Source of the DNA: a virus
Taxonomy: Duplodnaviria; Caudoviricetes
Virus record (IMG/VR): IMGVR_UViG_3300011335_000748
Location: 1 to 57,334 of that record
DNA length: 57,334 bases
Strand: one strand, 5' to 3'
Shown here: positions 1,764 through 56,705 of the stretch, piece by piece
Position numbering within the stretch: the first letter of the stretch is position 1
How the letters are laid out: every line of letters starts with the position of its first letter
Position numbers and translations under genes: made by a program
The notes under the pieces: model-generated
Told to the model about the DNA's origin: nothing
The model's database searches: none
Seen by the model: the letters and a program-made list of their open reading frames with translations, nothing else

Positions 1764-4700
1764 ATGGTTGACGAAACGCCAGCCCCTTTAACTCCGCTCC
1801 AGCAATACAAGTCGACCTTCACGGGGCTAGCCGATACCCCCGACGATCAGGTTATCGACTCTTTGTATGGCGAGTACGGCAAGGCTTCCGGTATGGACAA
1901 GCGAGACTTTGCTCTCGCTTGGCAGGGCCGTGGACCAAGGATGTCCCCCCTTCAGTCAGGTATTGCTGGGCTCAAAACCAGCTACCTTACTACCAAAGCC
2001 GGAGTAGCGCAGTCTCTTGGGGCAGATGAGTCTGCCCGCAACTACCTCAAAGAAGCAGAGACCATTGAGGCTGATACAAAGGCTCGATATCAGCCTGAGT
2101 TCCGGTCGTTCGATGACGTGCGCGGCCCAATCGATCTTGCAAAATACACCGCTGAAAAGTTTGGTGAGTCTGCCCCTCAAATGGCGGCACAAGCTGCGGG
2201 TGCATTGGCCTTGACGGCTGCGTCAGCAATAGCTCCGGTAGCAGCTCCCGTTGGTATTGGTGCTCGTGTCCTTTACACAGGACTAAGGGCACTTGCCGGT
2301 ACGACAACCCGAGCTGCTGTCACCGGAAGCACCGCAGTTGGTCTGCCTCTTTACACGGGGGCCAATCTTCAGCGTCAGATGGACGAAGGTGCAAAGTTTG
2401 AGGACGTAAGCTTAGGTCGCGCAACAGCTGCGGCAGCTCTTCAGTCAACACTGGATTCGATATCTCTTGCCACTGTGTTTAAGGGCCTTCCCGGAAGCAT
2501 GCTTCAAAAAGGTGGCATCTTCCGGCAAGCGGTCATTCGTGGTGTCGAATCAGGGGCAACCGAATCCCTTACGGAAACGGCACAGCAAGCCCTTGAAATC
2601 ATGCAAGCCAATCCTCAGAAGCTGTTTGAGTTTGGAGCAGACGTTCAGAAGGAACTGAAGGAAGCGGCTATTGCTGGCGCGATCCTCGGCGGCGCAATGG
2701 GTGGTGTGGCTGGCGGGGTTCAAAAAGGATTTGAACGCAAGCCGAAGCCCGTTGATGATACCACAACCCAGCAGGGTGGCGATAATACGGGCGGCGGCGG
2801 TGACACGACTACCGACACAAGCGGTGGTGCACTTCCTCCCCCTACTCCGGGATATGCTCCTCGGACCTTTGGTTCTGAGGGTCTGACAGAACCCTCCATC
2901 CAGCGGGCAGATCCTCGGACAGGCAAACCTGTGGTTGAGGTTGGCCTTACTCAACCCGTGGAACAGGTTGTTCCGGGTAATATTACAACGGAGGCCCAAG
3001 ACCTTATCCGCTTGGTGGACCAAGGGAACATGCAGCTCACCCCTGCAATAACCCCGGAACTTCAGAGGATTCTTCAGGAGAATGGGATTGCTGTCGAGGC
3101 AAGTGACACCTCCGATACGGCCCTCGAAAAATTGCGGGCTAAGGCTACCGTAGCTCCTATTATTAAGGACAAGGTCGGAGTTCATTTCACCAATGACTTT
3201 GATCGTGCGCTCTTCTATGCCAACTCCCCAAACATTGATGAGGCAACTCGGCAAGAGTACGAGGACTTCCTGACCCATCAGGGCCTCGACAAAACCCAGA
3301 TTCTTGAACTTGGGTTGCGGCTTGAGGACAAGATCCAAGAGGAAGCTAAGACTCACTTTCAGTTAGGCAACGAAGGTCCTCTGACCTTGGACTTCTCCCG
3401 CAGGGAAGCCGCTGAGATCTACAACAACCTTCCACAGGTCGCCGACACGTGGAAGAAGTTGCAGGAGCAGGGTTACTCTGCCGAGCAGATCAATGAGGAG
3501 ATGTCCGGTGAGGCGGCATACACTAACGCCACTCGCGGGAATGTGTCTGATGCAGTGCAAAAAGACACCGGGATCTTCTATTACGACAGGTCTCCCCCTA
3601 GAACTAATGACCCAAATGCGGTTGCGGCAGTTCCGGACAAAACTTTCAAGCGCAAGTTGGAAAGCAAATTTCCCGGTCTCACCTCCATCATGGAGAACAT
3701 TGCTCAACGTCTGTTCCCCGGGACAGATATCCATTTCTTCAATGAAAAGGATCCAAATAACTTTGGTTCCTTTGCCGGTATCTGGCGTTACAAGGTGGAC
3801 CCAAGTGCCCGCCGTCCCGGAGCCATGGGCATTGCTATCAACCTTCACGATATCTTGAAGGGGGCATACTCCAAAGGGAAGCAGCCTTCCCCACGTCAGA
3901 TAGCCAATCTTGTCCATACTATCCTGCATGAACTTAGCCATCCTGCTGTTGATTCGGTCCTTACCCGACTGAATGCCGCTGATATGGAAGCGGTCATGCA
4001 ACAGTATGCTTCGGAACGTAACAGCATAGCTATTAAAAGAGAGGCCGCTGCTCGAACTATCAACCAGCATACTTTTGATCTTAAACAAAAGGGTCCTGTA
4101 ACCGAGCAAGAGCTGGCTGACCTCAAGGACAGGGTTGCCAAAAGATTTGGGGTGTCTGTTTCTTCCATAGAAAAGTTTATCGCTGACCCTAGTGTCAACG
4201 AGCTGGGTGCTTTCTGGCATAAGGACAGCCAAGAGCTAACCTACCGCAGGGACTTTCAGGAGTGGGCTGCTGAAAAAGGCATGCGCTGGATGCTCCAAGA
4301 AATCCCGGGCCGTATGCCTGAGACCGTCTTGGACAAATTTGCAGCCGCCGTTCTTAAAGCTTTGCGTCAGGTTTATGAAACCATCGAAGCTGCATTTGGT
4401 ATCCCGTACACCCCCGGCGCGTTTGAAAAAGCGATGGCGGATACGTGGGGAGCTCATGATCGTACCAACGTCAACAAACAGTTGGCGGAGAAGATGATCT
4501 TGGATCCGCGTAATAACGCTACGGGTGGACCGTGGGCTAACGGCCCCTTTGGTCCAAGGCCCTACTATTCCTCCGCTGAACTTCAGGTTGGGCCAGACGA
4601 ATATTCTCGTTCAACATCTCAATTCGGTGCACTTGCGGGTGAGGATCAAGCCAAGTACAGCTCCCCAATCGAGGACCTTCCCAAAGAACCGAGGGAGAAA

Positions 4701-46278: not shown

Positions 46279-46569
46279 ATGGTTGGAAGTCAGGGTACTA
46301 CTGGTGGGTTTAGGGTGGACGTTCACACATCTTCGGATGGAGGACACCCACCAGAGTTCTGGGCAAAGCGGGCCGCTGACCGCATTGTTTCTGTTTCCGA
46401 AACAGCGCATCCTGCTATCCGCGAACAGGCGGTAGCCTTCAAGGATTTGGTAGAACAAGTAGTGCTTGATCACATGAAACGTGCTATATCCTGTGACAGG
46501 ACCACGGTCAGCCATCTGGTGACAGAGGCTGGTCACCCACAGTTAGCGGAACTTTTAAGGAGGCCATAA
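46279..46569 (+). CDS. Hypothetical protein
   Basis: V.T...GH.PE.WA..A..I..A.P.IR.QA.AF. Confidence 0.6.
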   Translation: MVGSQGTTGGFRVDVHTSSDGGHPPEFWAKRAADRIVSVSETAHPAIREQAVAFKDLVEQVVLDHMKRAISCDRTTVSHLVTEAGHPQLAELLRRP

Positions 46570-47027
46570 TGGCTTTTACCGGAAACTTTATGGCTACCTC
46601 TTTTAAGCTGGAGCTTCTCAGTGGTATCCACGCTTTCAATACCTCGGTTGTCCGTGCGGCTACGACGGCAGATACCTTTAAGATGGCTCTCTACACATCT
46701 TCGGCATCGCTGACCGCTGCAACCACAGCATACAGTGCAACCAACGAAACAACCAATACGGCTGGTTCGGCCTACACCGCGGGCGGTAATACACTTACAA
46801 GTTCAACCACTTCGTCTAGCGGCACAACTGCTTTCGCAGACTTTGCCGATAGCTCGTGGTCGACGGCCTCTTTCACTGCTCGCGGCGCGTTGATCTATAA
46901 CTCGACCCAGAGCAACAAGGCTGTTGTCGTGCTTGACTTCGGTGCGGATAAAACTGCCTCGGCTGGTACGTTTACGGTTGTCTTCCCAACTGCGGATGCT
47001 AGCAACGCAATCATCCGTATCGCCTAA
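46569..47027 (+). CDS. Tail-associated structural protein
   Basis: TSFK.ELL, FK.ALYT, YTAGG..L, ARGALIYN, VLDFG.DK. Confidence 0.65.
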   Translation: MAFTGNFMATSFKLELLSGIHAFNTSVVRAATTADTFKMALYTSSASLTAATTAYSATNETTNTAGSAYTAGGNTLTSSTTSSSGTTAFADFADSSWSTASFTARGALIYNSTQSNKAVVVLDFGADKTASAGTFTVVFPTADASNAIIRIA

Positions 47028-47045
47028 CATTGGGTGTGAGTACCG

Positions 47046-47714
47046 ATGGCTGACGCAACCGTATCATTCGAGGGTTGGGATCGATCCCTTGGATGGGGTA
47101 TCGGTGCATTTGGCACGGGGTCAATCGACGCATACATGACGGGTGGGGTGGGTGATTCCACCGTTCGAGTCGATGTGGATGTCGCGGTTACAGGGCTGTC
47201 GGCTACTGGGGATATTGGAACTGCTACCGTCACCGGGACAGCTAACGTCAGCCCAACGGGTGTTTCTGCCACCGGAGACATTGGAACTGCTACTGTTACG
47301 GCAGATGCAAATGTCGATACGACAGGCGTAGCTGGGACAGGCGGGACTGGAACTGCCACCGTTACGGCAGATGCCAATGTCAGCCCAACTGGTGTTTCTG
47401 CCACTGGTAATGTTGGCGATACCACCGTTACGGCAGATGCCAATGTCAGCCCAACTACGGTTTCTGGTGAGGGACAGGTTGGTCAGGTTGACATTGAGTC
47501 TGTCAACTTCGTTGATGTTACCGGAGTGTTCGCTACTGGTCAGGTTGGCGATACTACGGTAATAGGAGGAGCCACTGTTACTGTTGAAGGTTCTTCTGCA
47601 ACAGGGTATAGTGGACAAGTTCTCGTTTGGGGGGCGATTATTCCCAGTCAAACGCCCGGATGGAATGGAGTCGTTCCATCTCAGACCCCCAACTGGAACC
47701 AAGTTGCCGCGTAG
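47046..47714 (+). CDS. Fibre-like repeat protein
   Basis: Tandem 21-aa repeats TATVTADANVSPTGVSATG; GW..W..G N-terminus. Confidence 0.65.
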   Translation: MADATVSFEGWDRSLGWGIGAFGTGSIDAYMTGGVGDSTVRVDVDVAVTGLSATGDIGTATVTGTANVSPTGVSATGDIGTATVTADANVDTTGVAGTGGTGTATVTADANVSPTGVSATGNVGDTTVTADANVSPTTVSGEGQVGQVDIESVNFVDVTGVFATGQVGDTTVIGGATVTVEGSSATGYSGQVLVWGAIIPSQTPGWNGVVPSQTPNWNQVAA

Positions 47715-47725
47715 GAGGCAGATAA

Positions 47726-49108
47726 ATGGCTAGTACTTATTCAACCAATCTCGGCATCGAACTCATGGGGACTGGCGATCAGTCCGGTACTTGGGGTACG
47801 ACCACCAACACCAACCTCGGGACGCTGCTGGAACAGGCCATTGCTGGTTACGCCACTCAGGCGGTAACCGATTCTTCTTCCGCGACAGTCTTGACGATCA
47901 CCAACGGTGCAGCTTCCACAGGCCGCAACCCCGTCATCGTCCTGACAGGCGTATTGACTGCGGATCGTGTTGTTGAAGTTCCCGCCAAGACCAAACTGTA
48001 TGTCTTTAAGAACTCCACCACGGGTGGTTTCAACGTCACCGTAAAAGTAACGGGTCAGACGGGCGTGACGATTGCCAACGGCAAGACCGCCTACATGTTC
48101 TGCAATGCGACCGATACGGTTGAAATCTTTAACGCTCCGGTAACGGAAGCTGGGACGCAGACGCTCACCAACAAGACGCTGACATCTCCAACCGTCAATA
48201 CCGCCACTATCTCCGGCGGTACGATCAATAACGCCGTTATTGGTGGAACGACCGCTGCGGCTGGGACATTCACCACAATTGGCGGTACGACGATCACTGC
48301 CAGTACCCAGTTCTCCGGTCCACACAACGGAACCGTTGGTGCGACGACCCCCTCTACGGGTTCGTTTACTACCTTGGCAGCTTCCAGCACCGTATCTGGT
48401 ACAGGGTTTAGCACCTACCTTGCTTCCCCTCCTGCGATTGGCGGCACCACTCCGGCTGCGGGTGCTTTTACTACAGTCACTGCAACTACTGGGGCAGCTA
48501 CCGCTGCAACCTTTACATCTGCCAGCGTTGGCACGGGCGGAACTATTGCCGTTAATGATACAGGAACAAACGGCTCTATCATTAAAATGACAGGCAATGG
48601 CGCAACGACCCCTACCAAATTCTTAAACGTACTGAGCGGTGTACTCCGCATCCTTAATAATGCGTATTCTGCCGTTCTTATGACGCTTGATGATTCCGGG
48701 AATTTGGTTGCCACTGGTAACGTCACTGCATACTCCGATGAGCGGGTCAAGACCAACTGGCGTAGTATGGAACCCGGATTCCTGAAGCAGCTTTCCGAGA
48801 TCAAGGCTGGAACTTACGACCGTACCGATACCGACGCTCCCATGGTTCAGGTCGGTGTGTCCGCGCAGGACTTGCAGAAGATTCTTGGTCCTGCGGTCTT
48901 GGAAGATGCTGACGGTATGCTGTCCGTGGCTTACGGCAACGCGGCCCTTGTAGCTGCCGTCGAACTGTGCAAAGAAGTTCAGCGGCTTCACACCGAGATC
49001 GAAGCCTTAAAGGCCCAGTTCCACGAGGAGATTGGGTCTATCAAGGTGGAGTTTGCCGACGAGATCACAGCACTGAAAGCACGTCCTGTTTGCAAGTGCG
49101 CTTCATAA
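47726..49108 (+). CDS. Tail fibre with C-terminal intramolecular chaperone (Peptidase S74-like)
   Basis: MASTYS..G...GTWG..TN.N start; IGGTT.AAG.FTT repeats; AYSDERVKTN..GVSAQ..L.V.Y plus coiled coil. Confidence 0.85.
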   Translation: MASTYSTNLGIELMGTGDQSGTWGTTTNTNLGTLLEQAIAGYATQAVTDSSSATVLTITNGAASTGRNPVIVLTGVLTADRVVEVPAKTKLYVFKNSTTGGFNVTVKVTGQTGVTIANGKTAYMFCNATDTVEIFNAPVTEAGTQTLTNKTLTSPTVNTATISGGTINNAVIGGTTAAAGTFTTIGGTTITASTQFSGPHNGTVGATTPSTGSFTTLAASSTVSGTGFSTYLASPPAIGGTTPAAGAFTTVTATTGAATAATFTSASVGTGGTIAVNDTGTNGSIIKMTGNGATTPTKFLNVLSGVLRILNNAYSAVLMTLDDSGNLVATGNVTAYSDERVKTNWRSMEPGFLKQLSEIKAGTYDRTDTDAPMVQVGVSAQDLQKILGPAVLEDADGMLSVAYGNAALVAAVELCKEVQRLHTEIEALKAQFHEEIGSIKVEFADEITALKARPVCKCAS

Positions 49109-49120
49109 GGAGCCTATAGA

Positions 49121-50077
49121 ATGACGCTTCCCGCCTCTGGCACAATTGCTATGTCCAACTTCAACACCGAGCTGGGGGTGGCATCGACCACCAATAGGTC
49201 GATGTCCTCTATCTACTCACTAACTAAAACTGGGCAGCAGTCGTATGCGTTCAATGCCTATTACAGCAAGGCATACTACCAGAGCACCACTGGCGGAAAT
49301 TGCAACAACGGAAACTGTAACTTCCCCAATAATTGTACCTACCAGTGTACTAATTGTTCAACTGGTGCAGCAATCAATTGCACTAATTGCGATACTCAGT
49401 CCTACATTCAAACCAACTGTAACTGCGCTTGTACCTATAATTGTGCTGCCGTAACAAACATGTTGTACGATTGCGCTTGCGCTTGCTCTACTGACTCTAC
49501 CACCTGTTTTTTAGCTGGATCACCCGTTTTTATGGCAGATGGTTCGTTGCGGCGTATTGAGGATGTTAAGATAGGAGAATATGTAAAAGGCGCATACGGA
49601 GAAGCCAACAAGGTACTTGCGTATGACCGTCCACTTTTAGGCAATCGTCTTATGTTTGTTATTAATGGAGAACACCGGACAACAGACGAGCATTCCCACA
49701 TGAGGGCAGACCGTTCTTTCGGTCCCATAAGTTTAAGGGCGTGGCAATCCGATACCGGAACCACTCACCCCGTTATAGTTGATGAGTGTGGGACAGTTGA
49801 ACAGTGGTTACTCCCCGGTGTGGAAGACATGTCTACAATCAGCCAACTTCAAGTTGGAGAAGAGTTATGGACAACACACGGTTCCAAAAAACTTGAAACA
49901 ATCACCAGTGAAAAATTGCCTACAGAAACGCAGCTTTATAACTTGGTGCTTGATGGCAGTCATACTTACTTTGTTGATGGCTACTGCGTAACCGGGTTTA
50001 TAAACGGTTACGATTTTGACCATAAAAGCTGGTCTCCCTTGGGGGAAAAGTGGCTTCCCAACAACTACCGCAAATAG
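49121..50077 (+). CDS. Cys/Asn-rich tail-tip-like protein fused to a Hint (intein-like) domain
   Basis: MTLPASGTI..S.FNTELG start; 14 Cys in residues 61-122; CFLAGSPV.MADG..RIEDV..G (block A), TxxH (block B), YNL..DG.HTYFVDG (block F). Confidence 0.82.
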   Translation: MTLPASGTIAMSNFNTELGVASTTNRSMSSIYSLTKTGQQSYAFNAYYSKAYYQSTTGGNCNNGNCNFPNNCTYQCTNCSTGAAINCTNCDTQSYIQTNCNCACTYNCAAVTNMLYDCACACSTDSTTCFLAGSPVFMADGSLRRIEDVKIGEYVKGAYGEANKVLAYDRPLLGNRLMFVINGEHRTTDEHSHMRADRSFGPISLRAWQSDTGTTHPVIVDECGTVEQWLLPGVEDMSTISQLQVGEELWTTHGSKKLETITSEKLPTETQLYNLVLDGSHTYFVDGYCVTGFINGYDFDHKSWSPLGEKWLPNNYRK

Positions 50078-50112
50078 TTCTTCCCGTATTCTACGGTTAA
50101 AAGGAAACACCT

Positions 50113-50820
50113 ATGACCTCAATCATTGTCTATCGGGAGTTTACTCTTCCCTACACCTTCTCTGCGGAAGTCAGCATTTTAGCGGAAAGCGTAACAATCA
50201 CTACTACTACGAAGCATGTGCTTCAGAGTGAGCGTACTTTAACAACCACTATTCTTTGGAGCGAGTTGCAAGCGCGTGATGACAAGTGCGGCTTTGACCG
50301 CTGGATTGTTCCGCTAGATTCATACGGCAACCAATATCAAATTCGTAATTTGCATGTTGAAACATACGCTTCGCAACTGCCTCCTACCGAACAGGCTGGT
50401 TTGACGGGAAGCAGCAACTTGTTCCACATCATCACCCGCCCCACAGATACGTCTTTCTTGGACAGTTGCTACTATCTCAACATACCAGACGGGGGGACGT
50501 ACACCTGTAACCTTCCTGTCGAAGAACTCCCCCGCACTATTTCGACGGGTAGGAAATATTATTGGCCCGCGATGGAACTGGTTGAAATATCCAGAACATC
50601 TGATAAGGTCACTTGTGAGGTTCGGATGGATGCATCCGTATCTGACCAAGTGATATATTTAGAAACCGACTTGGGCTATGTTACGAAAGAAGTTACCGTC
50701 CAGAATGGTACGGCACAGTTCTCTTTTGTCCCCGTTGAGATGAACGACGGTGACACCGCTACTGTGAAAGCTGGATTCAAGTACTTCTCTAATGTGGCTT
50801 CGGTCCCCATTGTGAGGTGA
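50113..50820 (+). CDS. Hypothetical protein with beta-rich (Ig-like) C-terminus
   Basis: AAGGA RBS; YLET..GY...V....G...F..GD...VKAGFKYF. Confidence 0.6.
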   Translation: MTSIIVYREFTLPYTFSAEVSILAESVTITTTTKHVLQSERTLTTTILWSELQARDDKCGFDRWIVPLDSYGNQYQIRNLHVETYASQLPPTEQAGLTGSSNLFHIITRPTDTSFLDSCYYLNIPDGGTYTCNLPVEELPRTISTGRKYYWPAMELVEISRTSDKVTCEVRMDASVSDQVIYLETDLGYVTKEVTVQNGTAQFSFVPVEMNDGDTATVKAGFKYFSNVASVPIVR

Positions 50821-50825
50821 TCAAT

Positions 50826-51530
50826 ATGTCGAGTTACGACACGAATCCAACCATGTCAAATCTTTGGCCTACAAAGATAATGAAAGGTTCGATTATAAAG
50901 CCTGATTCGTGGCATGAAGAACTGGCAGAACTTGCCCGTGATTATGTTGAAAATAGAATGGTAAAATATGACAGCGGCTTCAAACACGCTGTACCTAACA
51001 ATCTTCTCCTTCATTATAAGTCCACGGCTTTAACTGAATACTTTGAGATTCTGCAAGACTATTTTTGGACCTATATGATGGGTGTTGCCGATATTGGTCC
51101 TTCAGATATTACGAAGCCAAATTGTCATATGTTTGGTAACGTTGAGAAAAGGGGCGAGTGGAGTATCCCACATGCCCATCACGGAAACCAATGCGTTATA
51201 ACTTTTTATCCCAAAGTCACCAGAGACCCCCAAGAGCCACATCCGTATGCTGGTTCTATGGTTTTTCACAACCCACGGTTTATGCAGTCAGGTTTTTGGG
51301 CAAGACGTGAAAAACTGTTTACCCCTTTTAAGGTTGAAACAGGAACTATTGTAGCGTTTCCGGGAATTGCCGAGCATTCGACGTTTCCATTCTTCAACGA
51401 AGGCTCAGAGAAAACGGCCCTTGTTTGCAATATCCGGTTTACGGGTACACTGGAAGGTGAGGGTTCAATGGACCAATACCAGACCTTTGAAGCCCTCAAT
51501 GAACACAGAGAAAAACTCTGCAACTCGTAA
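50826..51530 (+). CDS. Putative 2OG-Fe(II) oxygenase
   Basis: L(W)PT N-terminus, PHAH HxH, FHNPR, G.IVAFP...HS..P, ALVCN double-stranded beta-helix pattern. Confidence 0.75.
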   Translation: MSSYDTNPTMSNLWPTKIMKGSIIKPDSWHEELAELARDYVENRMVKYDSGFKHAVPNNLLLHYKSTALTEYFEILQDYFWTYMMGVADIGPSDITKPNCHMFGNVEKRGEWSIPHAHHGNQCVITFYPKVTRDPQEPHPYAGSMVFHNPRFMQSGFWARREKLFTPFKVETGTIVAFPGIAEHSTFPFFNEGSEKTALVCNIRFTGTLEGEGSMDQYQTFEALNEHREKLCNS

Positions 51531-51539
51531 GGAGTTAAC

Positions 51540-52979
51540 ATGCTTTTCAATATTCACGCTGAAAGAAATGGCGGCGCAGATAAAATCGTGCTGACCTACG
51601 ACAATGTGACCAATGAGCTGCGGGCTCAGGATGGGTTCCTCATTGAGAACCCATCGCTGCTACGTAAAAAATGGGAAGACGCAACTATCTTCTCTAAAGA
51701 ACACCCCTTGGTGAAGTCAAAGCTGGTTAAGATCCTCAAGATCCAGTTCGGTCTTTCCTGCAACTATAGCTGTTCCTATTGCTCTCAACGGTTTGTTGAA
51801 CGTGCAGATGAGACGAATAAGAAAGACATTGAAGGTTTTATGCGTAAGCTGGAAAACCTAGAGTTTAACGAGCAAGATGGGTTGAAGGTTGAGTTTTGGG
51901 GCGGGGAACCGCTTGTCTACATTAAGACGATAAAGCCTTTGCTTGAGGAGTTGCAGAAAAAATTCTCCTCTTGGGAAAAAAAGCCGCACTACAGCATGAT
52001 CACCAATGGGTCCTTGTTGACTGACGAGCTCTGCGACTGGCTGTTCAAAAACCACTTTAGTGTTGCCATCAGTCACGATGGTCCCGGTCAGCATGTACGT
52101 GGCCCGGACCCGTTTGATGATCCCGTGGTAAAAGATGTGATCCTGCGGTTCTATCGTCGGATGCGCCCCCTTAACCGCATCAGCTTCAACTCAATGCTGA
52201 ACAGCTCCAATAGGAGCCGCAAGGAAATCTTTGAGTGGTTTGTCAATCTTACCGGAGATCCCGGAGTCCTTCTTGGTGAGGGTGGGTTGATTGATGCATA
52301 CGATACTGACGGTCTTGCAAATGCTCTGACCACCAAGCAAGAACATTTTGAGTTTCGGCAAACTGCTTTTAAGGACATAGCCACAACGGGTGGGGCGATA
52401 GGTTTTACGGGCATCCTCGATAAGGTTGATGCTTTTACCAACGCCATTTTGTCTCACAAACCATCGAGGTCTCTTGGGCAGAAGTGCGGGATGGACGATG
52501 ACAACATCCTTGCTGTTGACCTAAAGGGCAACGTGATTACCTGTCAGAACGTAAGTGCTGTTTCTACCGCAGGAAACGGTATGCCCCACCTTGGAGGCAA
52601 CATTGTCAACATGGACTCGGTCAAGATCAGGACAGCTACCCACTGGAGCAATCGCCCCGACTGCGCCAACTGCCCCGTTCTGCATATCTGTCAGGGGTCT
52701 TGCATGTACCTTCAGGAAGAGTACTGGGATAAGTCATGCGACAACGCCTACTCCGATGCAGTTGCCATCTTTGCCCTGTCACTGGAAAAGATCACGGGGT
52801 ACATCCCCTATTTGATTGAAGCTGACCATCTTCCACCGGAGAGACAGGACATCTGGGGATGGACACTTGAACATGCTGAAGACGAGAAGAAGGATCTTGT
52901 GTCCCTTCGCCCTGTCATTCAGAAGAAAATGGTGGTAGAAGATGTTGAGGTCTACACACAAGCTGTCGTAGGGGAATGA
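51540..52979 (+). CDS. Radical SAM/SPASM domain protein
   Basis: CNYSCSYC, FWGGEP, ITNGSLL, ISHDG, KCG..VDL.G.V..C, CANCPVLHICQGSC..C. Confidence 0.92.
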   Translation: MLFNIHAERNGGADKIVLTYDNVTNELRAQDGFLIENPSLLRKKWEDATIFSKEHPLVKSKLVKILKIQFGLSCNYSCSYCSQRFVERADETNKKDIEGFMRKLENLEFNEQDGLKVEFWGGEPLVYIKTIKPLLEELQKKFSSWEKKPHYSMITNGSLLTDELCDWLFKNHFSVAISHDGPGQHVRGPDPFDDPVVKDVILRFYRRMRPLNRISFNSMLNSSNRSRKEIFEWFVNLTGDPGVLLGEGGLIDAYDTDGLANALTTKQEHFEFRQTAFKDIATTGGAIGFTGILDKVDAFTNAILSHKPSRSLGQKCGMDDDNILAVDLKGNVITCQNVSAVSTAGNGMPHLGGNIVNMDSVKIRTATHWSNRPDCANCPVLHICQGSCMYLQEEYWDKSCDNAYSDAVAIFALSLEKITGYIPYLIEADHLPPERQDIWGWTLEHAEDEKKDLVSLRPVIQKKMVVEDVEVYTQAVVGE

Positions 52980-52980
52980 T

Positions 52981-54828
52981 ATGCCTTTACAGAAACTCCA
53001 GTTCCGTCCCGGACTTGTTCGAGATGTAACAGCGTACACGAATGAGGGCGGCTGGTTTGACAGCAACCTTGTTCGTTTCCGCTTGGGGTTTCCGGAAACA
53101 ATCGGGGGCTGGCAGAAGTATTCTAATAACACCTATCTTGGGTCTGTCCGCTCTCTTTTGAGCTGGGTAACTCTTGACGGGTCTAACTTGCTGGCCCTCG
53201 GATCTAACCTGAAGTACTACATCGAGGAAGGCGGTCAGTTCTTCGACATCACGCCTATCCGAAAGACTGTGGCAGCGGCCTCAGCATTTGCCGCTACTAA
53301 TGGCCTGTCCACAATTGTGGTAACAAACACAGGACACGGTTGCGTCAACGGGGACTTTGTTACCTTTAGCGGCGCGGTTTCCCTTGGTGGTAACGTCACT
53401 GCCGCTGTTCTGAACCAAGAGTACCAAATCACCTACATCAACGAAAATAGCTATCGGATCACAGTATCTGTTGTTGCTAACGGATCAGACTCCGGTAACG
53501 GTGGTGCTTCGACTGTCGCCCAATACCAGATCAACACGGGCCTTGATACTCAGGTCGGCGGTACGGGTTGGGGCGCGGGAACGTGGAGCCGTGGGACATG
53601 GGGGTCTGCCACCACTGTCAGTATCGGTAACTCACTTCGGCAGTGGGCACAGGACAACTACGGCGAGGACTTGATCTTCAACGTCCGTAACGGCGGCGTG
53701 TACTATTGGTATGGTGCGGGGGGTAATGCTACCAGAGCGGTAACATTGGCCTCTCTGTCAACGGATACCTCTACCCCGGACATTGTGAACCAAGTTATTG
53801 TCTCTGACCGCGACCGACATGTGATTGCTTTCGGGGCAAACATGGGGTCAGGTACGGCTCAGGACCCATTGAGCATCCGGTTCAGCGACGGGGAAGACCC
53901 GTTCACTTGGTATCCTTCTGCTACCAACACTGCGGGCGATATCCGCATTGGTTCTGGTACGAAGATCGTTCGGGCCGTGGAAACCAAACGCGAAATCGTT
54001 GTGTTCACCGATGTTGCTGCCTATTCCATGCAGTACCTTGGACCACCCTACACATTCGGTATTCAGCAGATTGCCTCAAACATCACCATCAACGGCTTCA
54101 ACAGTGCCATCGCTGTTGACGACGCAGTGTTCTGGATGGGTAATAGCAACTTCTATGTGTATGCTGGTCAAACACAGCCTTTGAACTGTCCGATTCAAAG
54201 TTATATTTTCGATGACTTCAACATGGCGCAGAACGAGAAGGTGTTTGCCTACTTGAATGCCCAATACAACGAGGTCAACTGGCTGTATCCCTCGGCTAAT
54301 TCGGATGAGAACGACCGCTATGTGACCTATAACTACATCGACAAGGCGTGGTCTTTTGGTCAGATTGCCCGCACGGCGTGGCTGGATGACGGTGTTCGCG
54401 GCTTCTCCCTTGCGGCATCAACCGACCAGTATCTCTACAACCATGAAATTGGTACGGATGACGGCAGCACTAACCCTGCCTCTCCGTTAAATGCGTATAT
54501 TGAGTCCGCCCCCGTTGATATCACCGATGGGGACAAGTTCTCCTTTGTCCGTCGTATTCTTCCGGACGTGAAGTTCTTCAACTCTACAAGTGATCCGGAA
54601 GTTTCCTTGGTACTGAAGACGCAAAACTACCCCGGTTCAAACCTTGTTAGCGGGTCAACTTCAGCGGTAGATAGAACCTCCACTGTCCCTGTGGATCAGT
54701 ACACCAACGTGGCAAACGTCCGTGTTCGCGGTCGCTCACTCATCTTCCGCATTGAGAGCAACAAGGTCGGTACTCGGTGGGGATTGGGGTCTCCCCGTAT
54801 CGAGATTCGGCCTGACGGGGGTCGGTAA
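52981..54828 (+). CDS. Tail tubular/stabilisation protein (P22 gp10-like)
   Basis: PG..RD.T.Y..EG.W...VRFR.G.PE.IGGW; IRFSD.E..W.P..TNTAG; FWMG; EV.W.YP. Confidence 0.75.
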   Translation: MPLQKLQFRPGLVRDVTAYTNEGGWFDSNLVRFRLGFPETIGGWQKYSNNTYLGSVRSLLSWVTLDGSNLLALGSNLKYYIEEGGQFFDITPIRKTVAAASAFAATNGLSTIVVTNTGHGCVNGDFVTFSGAVSLGGNVTAAVLNQEYQITYINENSYRITVSVVANGSDSGNGGASTVAQYQINTGLDTQVGGTGWGAGTWSRGTWGSATTVSIGNSLRQWAQDNYGEDLIFNVRNGGVYYWYGAGGNATRAVTLASLSTDTSTPDIVNQVIVSDRDRHVIAFGANMGSGTAQDPLSIRFSDGEDPFTWYPSATNTAGDIRIGSGTKIVRAVETKREIVVFTDVAAYSMQYLGPPYTFGIQQIASNITINGFNSAIAVDDAVFWMGNSNFYVYAGQTQPLNCPIQSYIFDDFNMAQNEKVFAYLNAQYNEVNWLYPSANSDENDRYVTYNYIDKAWSFGQIARTAWLDDGVRGFSLAASTDQYLYNHEIGTDDGSTNPASPLNAYIESAPVDITDGDKFSFVRRILPDVKFFNSTSDPEVSLVLKTQNYPGSNLVSGSTSAVDRTSTVPVDQYTNVANVRVRGRSLIFRIESNKVGTRWGLGSPRIEIRPDGGR

Positions 54829-55121
54829 TGGATTACCGTATTGTATTTCCCACCTTTCCCAGACCACCGGAGGAGTATGATCAGCGGCACTTTCAGGATC
54901 TAGCACGTTCCTTGGAAGCCCTTGTCGTTGCTATCCGTACGGCTGGCGAGGGACGGCAGACCACTATCGTCTTGACAGACTTGCAGTCTAACGATGTTGG
55001 GCTTGAGGCAGGAACAATCTTTCAGGTTGCTGGGGTTTTGCGGGTATCAATGGCAAACCTCCCATATGTTACAGGTAACAGTGCAACGGGGCGGGTTGGC
55101 TCCGTATCAGTGACAACGTGA
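54828..55121 (+). CDS. Hypothetical tail-module protein
   Basis: P.PP.EYD motif; TAATG coupling. Confidence 0.6.
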   Translation: MDYRIVFPTFPRPPEEYDQRHFQDLARSLEALVVAIRTAGEGRQTTIVLTDLQSNDVGLEAGTIFQVAGVLRVSMANLPYVTGNSATGRVGSVSVTT

Positions 55122-55217
55122 CTTGTCTTTTCGGGTGTAAACGGGTATGTTCTTGGTTGCCAGTATCAGGCTCTGGCCCTGCCCATAAGAACTTCTCCGT
55201 ATCATAGGAACGTATCT

Positions 55218-56705
55218 ATGCAGGGTATCGCATCTATTCAAGATATGCCGTTTTCTCAGCAAGACTATCAAGGCATGGCTAAGGCTATTGGAGCATACTA
55301 CGACAGTATGTCTCCGGAGCAGAAACAAGCTTTGTCTGGCGTAGCCCAAGAGATTGGCTCGTTGCCAATCGAGAAGCTGAATGTCTTTGACCAGCTGCTC
55401 AACTTTCTTGAGAAGAATGTCGGTCGTTACAAAGAGGTTGTTGCCGAGCTTGTCCGCCGAGATGCTGTGGACGAGGGAGATCTCCCTGATACATATGACC
55501 CCGCCCTCTTTTCACTCATCCATTCTTTGGTTCGTGAGTCCTTAAAAAAGGCTGGCAACAATACCCAAGGGTTTGCAAAAGGTGGCTTGGCTTCTTTGAA
55601 GCACTCGGCTGCGCGAATCAAGGCCGCGGGCCGTGGTGATGATACCGTGCTGGCACACATCACTCCTGCCGAGGCAGCTTTGTTGAAAGCTCGCGGCGGC
55701 TCCGGTGATACAAACCCCCTCACTGGTTTGCCTGAGTATGGCTTCTTCAAAAGTATCGGTAAGATCTTCAAGGCTGTTGCTCCCATTTTGGGAACGGTCG
55801 TTGGCGGCATGGTCGGCATGCCGTTCCTCGGCGCGGTTATCGGTGGCGGTATTGGCGGCGCGATGGGTGGCGGCGGTGTCAAGGGTGCGTTGATGGGAGC
55901 CGGGATGTCGGCTCTTGGCTCGCTGGCTTTTGGTGGAGCAAGCAGCTTGTTCAACGGCGGCACTTTTATGGAAGGTGTCACTAACACACTTCCATCTTAT
56001 TTGGGTGGTGCTGGTGAGACGTTTGGTGGCTCGCTGTTCGGTAGCGGTGCATCTGGTAGCACTATTGATCCGGCGACAGGCCAAACTATTAAACCTCCAG
56101 TTCCTCCGGAAGGACTTCGCAGCTACGACCCTACAACCCCACAAGCTACAGGGGCTGCTAACGGCACAGTTACCCCAACGGCCCCCGCGGGGGCGGGTGC
56201 AGCCTCTACTGAAAAAGTTAGTTTCATGGATGACCCCATGAAGTGGATTGGTCAGAACAAGGGAACGGCTCTTGCCTTGGGTGGTGCAGGGTTGCTTGCT
56301 GCCAATAGCATGAACGAAAAGAAGGCTCCGGCGTCACTCGTCGACAACAACAAAGAGTTGACGAAGGAAGAGCGCGAGGCCAAGTATCCTTGGACCGTGA
56401 TCGACCAGAGCAAGTTCACAAACAATTATATCGCTCCCACCAATCAAGCTCCTCAGTATGAGTGGCAGAAGGGTGTGTACGAAACACCTAAGTTTGTTGC
56501 GGCTAAGGGCGGGATTGCCGATGTTCGCACAGGTGGGCATCTTGAAGGACCGGGCACAGGAACAAGTGATTCGATCCCTGCCAAGTTGAGCGACGGCGAG
56601 TTTGTTATGACGGCAAAGGCTGTCCGTGGGGCTGGTGGCGGTGACCGCATGAAGGGTGCAAAGAAGATGTACGAACTCATGCATAAATTTGAACGGGTGG
56701 CATAA
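55218..56705 (+). CDS. Internal virion/ejection protein with GG motifs
   Basis: GDDTVLAHITPAEAALLK..NP.TGLPEY, Gly-rich hydrophobic segment, GPGTGTSDSIPA.LSDGEFV C-terminus. Confidence 0.7.
   Translation: MQGIASIQDMPFSQQDYQGMAKAIGAYYDSMSPEQKQALSGVAQEIGSLPIEKLNVFDQLLNFLEKNVGRYKEVVAELVRRDAVDEGDLPDTYDPALFSLIHSLVRESLKKAGNNTQGFAKGGLASLKHSAARIKAAGRGDDTVLAHITPAEAALLKARGGSGDTNPLTGLPEYGFFKSIGKIFKAVAPILGTVVGGMVGMPFLGAVIGGGIGGAMGGGGVKGALMGAGMSALGSLAFGGASSLFNGGTFMEGVTNTLPSYLGGAGETFGGSLFGSGASGSTIDPATGQTIKPPVPPEGLRSYDPTTPQATGAANGTVTPTAPAGAGAASTEKVSFMDDPMKWIGQNKGTALALGGAGLLAANSMNEKKAPASLVDNNKELTKEEREAKYPWTVIDQSKFTNNYIAPTNQAPQYEWQKGVYETPKFVAAKGGIADVRTGGHLEGPGTGTSDSIPAKLSDGEFVMTAKAVRGAGGGDRMKGAKKMYELMHKFERVA

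Follow-up and report, generated by a model that had tools for sequence, protein, structure and literature searches.

A radical SAM/SPASM cassette beside a phage tail fiber gene as a candidate maturation module for the fiber tip

The streptococcal radical S-adenosylmethionine (SAM) enzyme NxxcB links the sulfur of a cysteine to the beta-carbon of an asparagine and also accepts Ala, Gln and Asp, as described in parts of PMC9389541. In Methanococcus voltae, the SPASM enzyme CrpC introduces a number of ranthionine cross-links into the protein CrpA, within its Cys-rich C-terminal part, the Crp yield being raised by a third protein, CrpB; QhpD makes three intraprotein Cys-to-Asp/Glu thioethers in the structural subunit QhpC (both covered in passages of PMC13692751, in the main text of which the word "phage" occurs zero times). 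The locus considered here belongs to an aquatic tailed virus. It lies in IMG/VR record IMGVR_UViG_3300011335_000748, which has 57,334 bp, is complete and carries direct terminal repeats; the record was analyzed over its whole length and is referred to below as the window. Four consecutive genes of the window, coding for an Asn-Cys-rich precursor (gene 1), an accessory protein (gene 2), a 2-oxoglutarate (2OG)-Fe(II) oxygenase-like protein (gene 3) and a radical SAM/SPASM enzyme (gene 4), form the cassette in question (Table 1). We estimate at roughly 60% the probability that it is a maturation module for a tail-fiber tip which is cross-linked by thioethers. A preliminary description of the window had already proposed that the SPASM enzyme matures a virion or fiber protein rather than a secreted peptide; this proposal is strongly supported by synteny and architecture, and its chemistry we infer.

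The Asn-Cys precursor and the radical SAM enzyme

Residues 61-122 of the gene 1 product contain 14 Cys, nine of which are preceded by Asn, exactly as had been counted in the preliminary description. In 100,000 shuffles of residues 58-128, the domain termed the ladder in the following, nine Asn-Cys (NC) dipeptides were reached only twice. Over 35 homologues, residues N60, C61, N65, C66, C79, N89, C90, D91, Q97, N99, C100, N101, C102, N107 and C118 were invariant or near-invariant. As Asn is conserved as strongly as Cys, and as the pairing of the two is non-random, the ladder fits a donor-acceptor pair, and it is presumed to be the substrate of the radical SAM enzyme.

The domain preceding the ladder, termed the adaptor, was modelled by AlphaFold2 (AF2) with a predicted local distance difference test (pLDDT) score of 68-80, and its hidden Markov model (HMM) matched a protein of Providencia phage PSTNGR1 which is located after an S74 fiber (22.6 bits). 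This is in line with the early remark that the N-terminus resembles small proteins following fibers. What had been taken for a simple tip protein carries, in addition, a putatively self-cleaving Hint domain which the preliminary description had overlooked. Pfam PF05203 (Hom_end_hint) matched this part with 34.2 bits (cut-off 32.1), and residues 130-318 were predicted with pLDDT >90. A Foldseek search with the model gave 41 matches at E ≤ 0.001, those listed being inteins, bacterial intein-like (BIL), Vint or hedgehog domains; BIL2 6y75 (TM 0.78, E 4e-8) and BIL 2lwy (TM 0.76) ranked ahead of inteins and hedgehog. C129, F130, M138 and H191 were invariant over the 35 homologues, and in most rows the third residue ahead of the His is Thr or Ser. 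The hallmarks of Hint/BIL domains, namely a Cys as the first residue together with a block B T-x-x-H motif on the one hand, and the Hint fold on the other, are thus both present. A C-terminal His-Asn was not conserved across the 35 homologues, the tails of which are variable and include no C-extein; the protein ends 30-40 residues past the last conserved Hint strand. The lack of His-Asn and the variable tails indicate a cleaving module and not a splicing intein, and the domain would be expected to cleave itself off after Thr128. Because gene 1 ends in this Hint domain, its product is best described as a three-part precursor consisting of adaptor (residues 1-57), ladder (58-128) and Hint (129-318).

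The CxxxCxxC motif and the SPASM Cys cluster that had been pointed out in gene 4 could be located residue by residue. The SAM-cluster motif is C74-x3-C78-x2-C81, the SPASM pattern C316-x13-G-x4-C335 ... C375-x2-C378-x5-C384-x3-C388 ... C400 is present with all seven Cys, and all ten cluster Cys are invariant in 12 aligned homologues. Pfam Radical_SAM matched with 41.1 bits (cut-off 29.5); the Pfam SPASM model did not match at E ≤ 0.1, the SPASM assignment resting on the motif. Among the NCBIfam models, QhpD was the best match (E 2.8e-24; 85.6 bits, cut-off 453), followed by PapB (E 9.5e-23; 80.9 bits, cut-off 340), CcpM (70.5 bits, cut-off 500), the SCIFF maturase (56.7 bits, cut-off 425) and TIGR04463 (46.9 bits, cut-off 525). 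By sequence, the nearest relatives of solved structure are TigE (8VPO), CteB (5wgg; E 2.1e-10) and sulfatase maturase. Gene 4 matched phrog_1802 with an E-value of 4.6e-62 and represents a separate family, none of the named thioether-forming equivalogs being reached at its cut-off.

Linkage of enzyme and ladder across viral and bacterial loci

Co-occurrence and synteny, the search for which had been suggested in the preliminary description, tie the enzyme to the ladder. In 17 of 17 viral contigs the Asn-Cys protein and the enzyme are adjacent: all seven IMG/VR loci found via the enzyme have a neighboring NC-rich protein with the same N-terminus, and all ten loci found via gene 1 contain the enzyme (55-58% identity). 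Prokaryotes were scanned with one genome per species, and 80 loci were kept of 184 relatives, mostly from Burkholderiales (for example Limnohabitans, Polynucleobacter and Paraburkholderia); loci are cited below by numbers with the prefix L. A ladder, defined for these genome loci as (X-C)n with n ≥ 3 and at least two NC on the same strand as the enzyme, was present in 64 of the 80; from the end of its open reading frame (ORF) to the enzyme downstream, the median distance is 1432 nt. Of the 16 ladder-less loci, 14 are cut by contig ends, ten with <1.3 kb of upstream sequence and four starting at the accessory or oxygenase gene on the contig edge. The other two are possible exceptions and are considered below.

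The gene order was ladder, accessory, enzyme in 27 genome loci, ladder, accessory, oxygenase, enzyme (the order of the window) in 14, and ladder directly followed by enzyme in another 14; two accessory hits lie between ladder and enzyme in six, and three show other orders. Among the phages in GenBank, the enzyme was found in only five records, namely those of Achromobacter phages JWF (two) and 2-1 and of Ralstonia phage RSP15 (two). In Achromobacter phage 2-1, the ladder NCNCDCNCSC of a 480-aa fiber-like protein runs into a Hint domain; a 240-aa gene comes next and then the enzyme. In RSP15, the protein annotated as "side tail fiber" has NTNCQCGN at its end, and an accessory homologue, an unclassified gene and the enzyme lie behind it. 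The one natural control (n=1) is PSTNGR1, which has the adaptor and the Hint domain, no ladder and no close homologue of the enzyme. Further ladder-less controls were not obtained, as no relatives of the PSTNGR1 protein were found in viral contigs and tblastn of residues 1-58 against phages returned nothing. From this control, and from the fiber-end ladders that lack the adaptor and nevertheless keep the enzyme, it follows that the ladder is the only feature common to all enzyme partners.

The type of ladder also changes with the type of enzyme. Every enzyme with at least 54% identity to that of the window (17 IMG/VR loci, L025-L028 and L038) has a long NC domain as its partner. No match to models of the long NC domain or the N-terminus was obtained for the remaining 75 genome loci (≤51%), for RSP15 and the Achromobacter phages (45-49%) or for metagenome contig L020 (36%), and any ladder protein seen in this group has a short terminal ladder. 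Enzyme clade thus tracks ladder type. The window itself mixes modules which are usually apart, combining the adaptor-type long ladder and Hint with the accessory/oxygenase pair of fiber-end ladders. As observations in their own right, two ORFs match the enzyme model in L084, L088-L090, L092, L102 and L104, which could be tandem enzymes or split genes, and L028 (Paraburkholderia) contains, at 2835-3080 upstream of its Asn-Cys protein, an 82-aa frame with 16 Cys including CCECQCECCC, possibly one that is open by chance.

In 58 of the 64 genome loci with a ladder, the ladder lies ≤15 residues from the C-terminus of its host protein, which is 190-620 aa long. All five ladder proteins that were inspected are fiber-like, one having collagen-like Gly-X-Y runs and four a "GDTMTG"-type fiber motif; in one of the five (L057), a Hint domain follows the ladder. 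Homologues of residues 1-128 amounted to 156 of 173 candidates at E ≤ 1e-3, of which 120 are listed. Among these 120, the ladder is followed by a Hint domain in 35 (plus three probable cases), by an S74 chaperone in 15, by an unassigned domain of ~160 aa in 65 and by another tail in two (P0107, P0121). In the S74-type homologues an SDxRLK-type site abuts the last ladder Cys, stand-alone forms (L003-L005) end directly after the ladder, and an S74 fiber is encoded immediately upstream in the window, L003-L005, L011 and PSTNGR1. The occurrence of two unrelated self-removing modules at one position suggests that the C-terminus of the mature protein lies at the ladder or close to it, and as the S74 type is known from trimeric fibers, it also points to a fiber-like assembly. 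A trimer prediction (three copies of residues 1-128, 35-row alignment) scored 0.01, the mark being 0.42, and speaks neither for nor against a trimer. When longer fused forms of the ladder domain were looked for, none of 29 candidates scored, a weak negative since fused forms do occur in an Achromobacter phage and in genome loci.

In the class of 65 (for example P0021; L006-L010 and L012-L019), "...SKIIC" is followed by a ~160-aa domain which ends in hydrophobic stretches and belongs to no Pfam family; it may be a membrane anchor or a third removable module. The marine T4-like loci L006-L010, L012-L014 and L016-L018 have a PF13759 oxygenase 1-3 kb downstream of the Asn-Cys protein, together with a match to Aspartyl/Asparaginyl beta-hydroxylase (PF05118; E 3e-7 in L013), and in L010 two fatty-acid-desaturase-like genes separate the enzyme gene from that of its presumed substrate.

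Accessory protein, oxygenase and genomic setting

The "accessory protein" of the preliminary description is a conserved family (its HMM matched in 52 of the 80 genome loci, including 47 of the 64 that have a ladder, and also in RSP15 and L020) and, rather than an obvious enzyme, Ig-like. The AF2 model (pLDDT 95.5) consists mainly of beta-strands in a sandwich-like arrangement, with an intimin/invasin-type Ig domain at the C-terminus (residues 152-235; VIA-align of residues 154-235 with intimin, Z 9.3, rmsd 2.4, 79 residues aligned). Foldseek against the PDB returned only low-TM tandem Ig-like matches and no enzyme-like fold, these structural comparisons bearing little on the N-terminal 150 residues; the whole fold recurs in seven uncharacterized phage proteins of BFVD (TMq 0.58-0.78). 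Relatives at E ≤ 1e-3 numbered 41 in a search of a representative library, and an atlas search yielded solely hits below 0.9, which were set aside. Invariance is seen at N79, G188, G199 and G221, and among the Cys, His, Asp, Glu and Ser residues no conserved one is conspicuous, for which reason gene 2 is read as coding for a binding or structural protein. It is homologous to ORF047 of RSP15 (hhalign 98.65%). None of the 17 IMG/VR loci matched the accessory HMM; in viral contigs an accessory gene was detected with a 5-row alignment, an earlier search having returned no relatives, in a single metagenome contig, L020, where accessory (44% identity), oxygenase (63%) and enzyme (36%) follow each other in this order. 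The 240-aa gene between fiber and enzyme of the Achromobacter phage has no BLAST similarity to the accessory protein and matches no Pfam or PHROG family.

The assignment of gene 3 as a 2OG-Fe(II) oxygenase stands with respect to phrog_81 (E 1.2e-15) and falls short with respect to PF13759, where it scored 17.8 bits (cut-off 27). H-x-H and the distal His are invariant in five aligned sequences, three of which pass Pfam; the L020 gene mentioned above occupies the equivalent position. The oxygenase is an optional component of the cassette: it occurs in 19 of the 80 genome loci and, among the 21 viral or phage loci with the enzyme, in 13 (of the eight that lack it, two are no more than short fragments). 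ORF046 of RSP15 was considered as an oxygenase and is not detectably one. The EGF (epidermal growth factor)-type consensus for Asp/Asn hydroxylation was compared with the ladder by eye, judged a poor fit and dropped.

Table 1. Positions of the cassette genes, the gene 1 domains and the two flanking genes in the window.
Feature	Coordinates	Strand	Basis
Tail fiber with C-terminal S74 chaperone	47726..49108	+	PF13884, 32.7 bits vs cut-off 22, residues 337-391
Gene 1, Asn-Cys/Hint precursor	49121..50077	+	ORF, 318 aa
Gene 1, N-terminal adaptor-like domain, residues 1-57, starts MTLPASG	49121..49291	+	Kept in 120 listed homologues
Gene 1, Asn-Cys ladder domain, residues 58-128, 14 Cys and 14 Asn	49292..49504	+	Counts, shuffles, conservation
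Gene 1, Hint domain (autoprocessing, bacterial intein-like), residues 129-318, beginning with CFLAG	49505..50077	+	PF05203, fold, conservation
Gene 2, accessory protein	50113..50820	+	ORF, 235 aa
Gene 3, 2OG-Fe(II) oxygenase-like, PF13759 type	50817..51530	+	ORF, 237 aa
Gene 4, radical SAM/SPASM enzyme, peptide or protein maturase type	51540..52979	+	ORF, 479 aa
Virion structural gene bounding the slot downstream (context, not cassette)	52981..54828	+	phrog_3287, E 1.9e-68

The window contains genes for primase, helicase, family A DNA polymerase, large terminase, portal and major head protein. The terminase shares 57-62% identity with its counterparts in Pelagibacter phages HTVC027P and HTVC023P and in lake phage DSL-LC04. 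The four co-oriented, tightly packed genes that had been described were recovered as ORFs on the plus strand; from the fiber gene through the cassette to the downstream gene, the gaps are 12, 35, -4, 9 and 1 nt. A scan of 46500-55300 for promoter-like and terminator-like sites gave no excess over shuffles, which, taken together with the tight gaps, fits one long structural operon; a tRNA scan found zero tRNAs. The cassette had been placed between an S74 fiber and a tail tube gene. The fiber holds: its gene also matches tail-fiber PHROGs, and its residues 1-149 are 37% identical to a region annotated as putative tail protein gp69 of HTVC027P. The tail tube is not supported, the gene in its place matching a family of virion structural proteins and its product being 33-41% identical to a "stabilization" or "constituent protein" of DSL-LC04, HTVC027P and others; the labels among relatives are stabilization, constituent or needle-head protein. 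The GC content of genes 1 to 4 is 45.9%, 47.5%, 43.0% and 48.9%, that of the window 52.7% and that of the flanking genes 53-54%. The equivalent slot of DSL-LC04 and HTVC027P holds other receptor-binding, lysis and 2OG oxygenase genes, and these two relatives of the window phage are without the radical SAM enzyme. Given its low GC content and the different contents of the slot in the two relatives, the cassette looks like an exchangeable insert.

Several further features of the window were recorded. Directly upstream of the fiber gene, 47046-47714 encodes a 222-aa protein made of ~22-residue repeats, (V/T)SATG(D/N)(I/V)G(T/D)(A/T)TVTADANV, which matches neither a Pfam nor a PHROG family; TRF reports a repeat with a period of 66 nt and 1.9 copies within it (47356-47482). 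The 1876-aa ORF at 1755-7385 matches solely the unknown-function families phrog_18222 and phrog_9854. In a Gly-rich 495-aa protein (55218-56705), ~50 C-terminal residues match a motif of many tape-measure families, which is of note given the resemblance of its terminase to the terminases of Pelagibacter phages HTVC027P and HTVC023P.

Proposed maturation, rival explanations and comparison with known systems

The domain architecture, the conserved catalytic residues, the synteny and the co-variation of enzyme and ladder are observed, and from the precedents for Cys-Asn thioethers and for thioethers within proteins, staples, removal of Hint, docking and helper roles are proposed on top of them. 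Gene 1 would be translated into the 318-aa precursor of adaptor, ladder and Hint. The enzyme, predicted to hold one SAM cluster and two auxiliary [4Fe-4S] clusters, would act on the ladder itself and join Cys sulfur to a neighboring side-chain carbon, likeliest the beta-carbon of Asn, resulting in several thioether staples. An N-to-S acyl shift at Cys129 would then detach Hint and leave a 128-aa product with the ladder near its C-terminus. This product would dock via its N-terminus onto the S74 fiber encoded upstream, which is its probable partner; the Ig-like accessory protein may aid presentation or cap the tip, and the 2OG oxygenase may add an optional hydroxylation. That the product is a virion component and a fiber tip is suggested by its context, i.e., by the upstream S74 fiber, the S74-fused homologues and the ladders at fiber ends. 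A further-reaching variant, in which the stapled tip is possibly cross-linked between the chains of a trimer and the Cys129 thioester then, with no enzyme involved, ligates the tip to the S74 fiber or to the accessory protein, or closes a ring, is tentative and rather improbable. It would resemble the case of the Tetrahymena BIL-ubiquitin-like proteins; among the structural matches of the window's Hint domain, their BIL2 ranks first.

A number of findings weigh against a thioether-stapled fiber tip. The NCBIfam alignments mostly span the radical SAM core and stay far under their cut-offs, the closest solved structure, TigE, belongs to an enzyme that forms C-C bonds and not thioethers, and the type of cross-link is not readable from the sequence. 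The core alignment starts at residue 59 of gene 4 and at residue 105 of TigE, the recognition element of which comprises residues 3-85; with only 58 conserved residues before the core, compared with about 104 in TigE, a canonical recognition element of the kind used for peptides that are made on ribosomes and modified after translation (RiPPs) is doubtful, and the ladder is possibly recognized directly or through the accessory protein. The AF2 fold of the ladder is not confident (pLDDT <50 at residues 58-89 and 102-125). L047 and L085, with 4.8 and 2.4 kb of upstream sequence, respectively, have the enzyme without a ladder ORF and are possible true exceptions (the upstream ORFs of L047 look fragmented, and it may be a decayed prophage), and the "ladder" of RSP15 amounts to NCQC. 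In marine loci, the 65 of 120 class is without adjacent fiber genes, so that some members of the family may not need to be virion tips. Accessory protein and oxygenase are not universal in enzyme loci, and annotated 2OG oxygenases occupy the equivalent slot of the enzyme-less HTVC027P and DSL-LC04 (tblastn with the window's oxygenase gave no match to them at E ≤ 0.01). Finally, the presence of an oxygen-labile and an oxygen-dependent enzyme within one cassette is unexplained.

Some of these points would equally suit an enzyme that acts on the ladder with other chemistry, forming C-C or C-O bonds or converting Cys to formylglycine, or a ladder that mainly binds metal or Fe-S along the trimer axis, which we regard as unlikely. 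The tip of the T4 long fiber offers an analogy for such a metal needle, its His-x-His motifs binding iron, and the alternation X-C would place all Cys of the ladder on one face of a strand; the failure of AF2 to fold the apo ladder monomer is compatible with a metal ligand as well as with other chemistry. The latter is also favored by the bond formed by TigE, by the variety of reactions that SPASM enzymes catalyze (parts of PMC13692751) and by the anaerobic sulfatase maturase model, which aligns over residues 70-390 of gene 4. Against this alternative speak an Asn as conserved as Cys and an NC count that shuffling hardly ever reproduces, and the top family scores belong to QhpD and PapB, which form Cys-to-Asp/Glu thioethers. 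A Cys-to-Asn beta-carbon linkage, moreover, has a precedent in NxxcB. As for formylglycine, sulfatases are matured at C/S-x-P/A-x-R, a motif not visible in residues 58-128.

The other alternatives dispute the location or the partner of the ladder protein. It could be an intracellular or membrane-associated factor in a variable slot, for instance one that aids assembly or acts in superinfection or host takeover, as would suit the hydrophobic stretches at the C-terminus of 65 of the 120 listed homologues, the marine T4-like members that sit amid oxygenase and desaturase genes and not fibers, a cassette GC content (43-49%, compared with 52.7% for the window) of the kind seen in morons, and the absence of the cassette from the relatives of the window phage. 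We consider this distinctly improbable in view of the S74 fiber that directly precedes the gene in the window, L003-L005 and L011, the S74 chaperone that ends 15 of the 120 homologues, and the near-terminal ladders of proteins that, where inspected, were fiber-like; no signal peptide or transporter gene was seen by eye in the cassette. A diffusible RiPP-type peptide (bacteriocin or signal) with residues 1-57 as leader, the ladder as core and Hint for release has a RiPP-like logic on its side, in that the N-terminus is conserved, the core is rich in Cys and the maturase is of the SPASM type, and a cyanophage "radical SAM superfamily maturase" has been interpreted as an antibiotic synthesis gene (in a portion of PMC12801897). 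This is very improbable, because neither a leader peptidase nor an exporter is encoded in or beside the cassette, because the cut expected from Hint is C-terminal and not at a leader/core junction, because PSTNGR1 has the same N-terminus without ladder or enzyme, and because ladders without the adaptor end long upstream proteins of which the five inspected are fiber-like. The least probable alternative is that gene 4 is an auxiliary metabolic or nucleic-acid-modifying gene with no functional tie to its Cys-rich neighbor. The variable regions of marine phages do hold many radical SAM and 2OG genes, yet the adjacency is maintained over podophage, myophage, siphophage and prophage-like loci (17 of 17 and 64 of 80), enzyme clade and type of ladder protein co-vary, and the family matches are peptide or protein maturases.

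If the cassette does staple a fiber tip, tailed phages of several lineages (podophages from water, T4-like phages from the sea, siphophages of Achromobacter, a myophage of Ralstonia and many prophage-like loci, largely in Burkholderiales genomes) would cross-link their host-binding fiber ends with a class of enzymes known from peptide antibiotics. This would be a new type of post-translational modification of virions and a new role of SPASM enzymes, on a structural protein and not a natural product. Phage genes now labelled sulfatase maturase would need re-annotation, and, if the cyanophage radical SAM maturase is kin to the window enzyme, its "antibiotic synthesis" label would also be up for revision; genome mining for peptide natural products would score such loci as false positives. 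Stapled, protease-resistant tips might be useful for the engineering of receptor-binding proteins, and the module is carried by three cultured phages. The main-text literature searched, which included parts of PMC3556154, PMC12801897 and PMC7159879, contained no description of a radical SAM modification of a phage fiber and none of a Hint-capped fiber protein; what came closest was the interpretation of the cyanophage maturase mentioned above.

Among the known systems, the pair NxxcB/NxxcA resembles the window in that a radical SAM enzyme with an auxiliary cluster is involved, and in that residues which NxxcB accepts alternate with Cys in the ladders (N, A, D, Q, S). NxxcA is encoded in a quorum-regulated cluster of a bacterium and is a short peptide, secreted and with a single NxxC motif, whereas the window has 14 Cys in a 71-residue phage domain with Hint attached; the NCBIfam matches of gene 4 did not include an NxxcB model. 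In the Crp system, CrpB could parallel the accessory protein of the window. The system is archaeal and non-virion, with a predicted recognition element of 92 residues in CrpC compared with the 58 residues before the core here, and TIGR04463, to which CrpC belongs, is reached with less than a tenth of the cut-off score. QhpD, although the best NCBIfam match, aligns over the core only, and QhpC, a subunit of an enzyme, has a leader but no Asn-Cys ladder. PapB/freyrasin and CteB/SCIFF have in common with the cassette that SPASM enzymes form repeated Cys-to-side-chain thioethers on Cys-rich cores; their substrates are small leader peptides bound by a fused recognition element, and all scores are under the family cut-offs. 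Ranthipeptide and sactipeptide precursors have a short leader-core form, lose their leader and are exported, whereas gene 1 codes for a 318-aa precursor with Hint and the cassette contains no protease or transporter.

The nearest parallels to the C-terminal part of gene 1 are found elsewhere. The S74 chaperone is a C-terminal module that is removed after assembly, and Hint holds the same position in gene 1. Their cleavage chemistry differs, as Hint acts via a Cys1 thioester and S74 via Ser-Lys. In a literature search combining Hint, tail fiber and bacteriophage, the portions of the sources returned held no Hint domain at the end of a fiber protein. The best structural matches, BIL2 of Tetrahymena (6y75) and the BIL of C. 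thermocellum (2lwy), with hedgehog 1at0 ranking lower, share the conserved Cys1 and T/S-x-x-H with the window's Hint domain, which differs from splicing inteins by having neither a C-extein nor His-Asn; its thioester would be resolved by water or another nucleophile. Compared with all of these systems, the logic of the enzyme is already known, and the novelty lies in the substrate, in the virion context and in caps that remove themselves.

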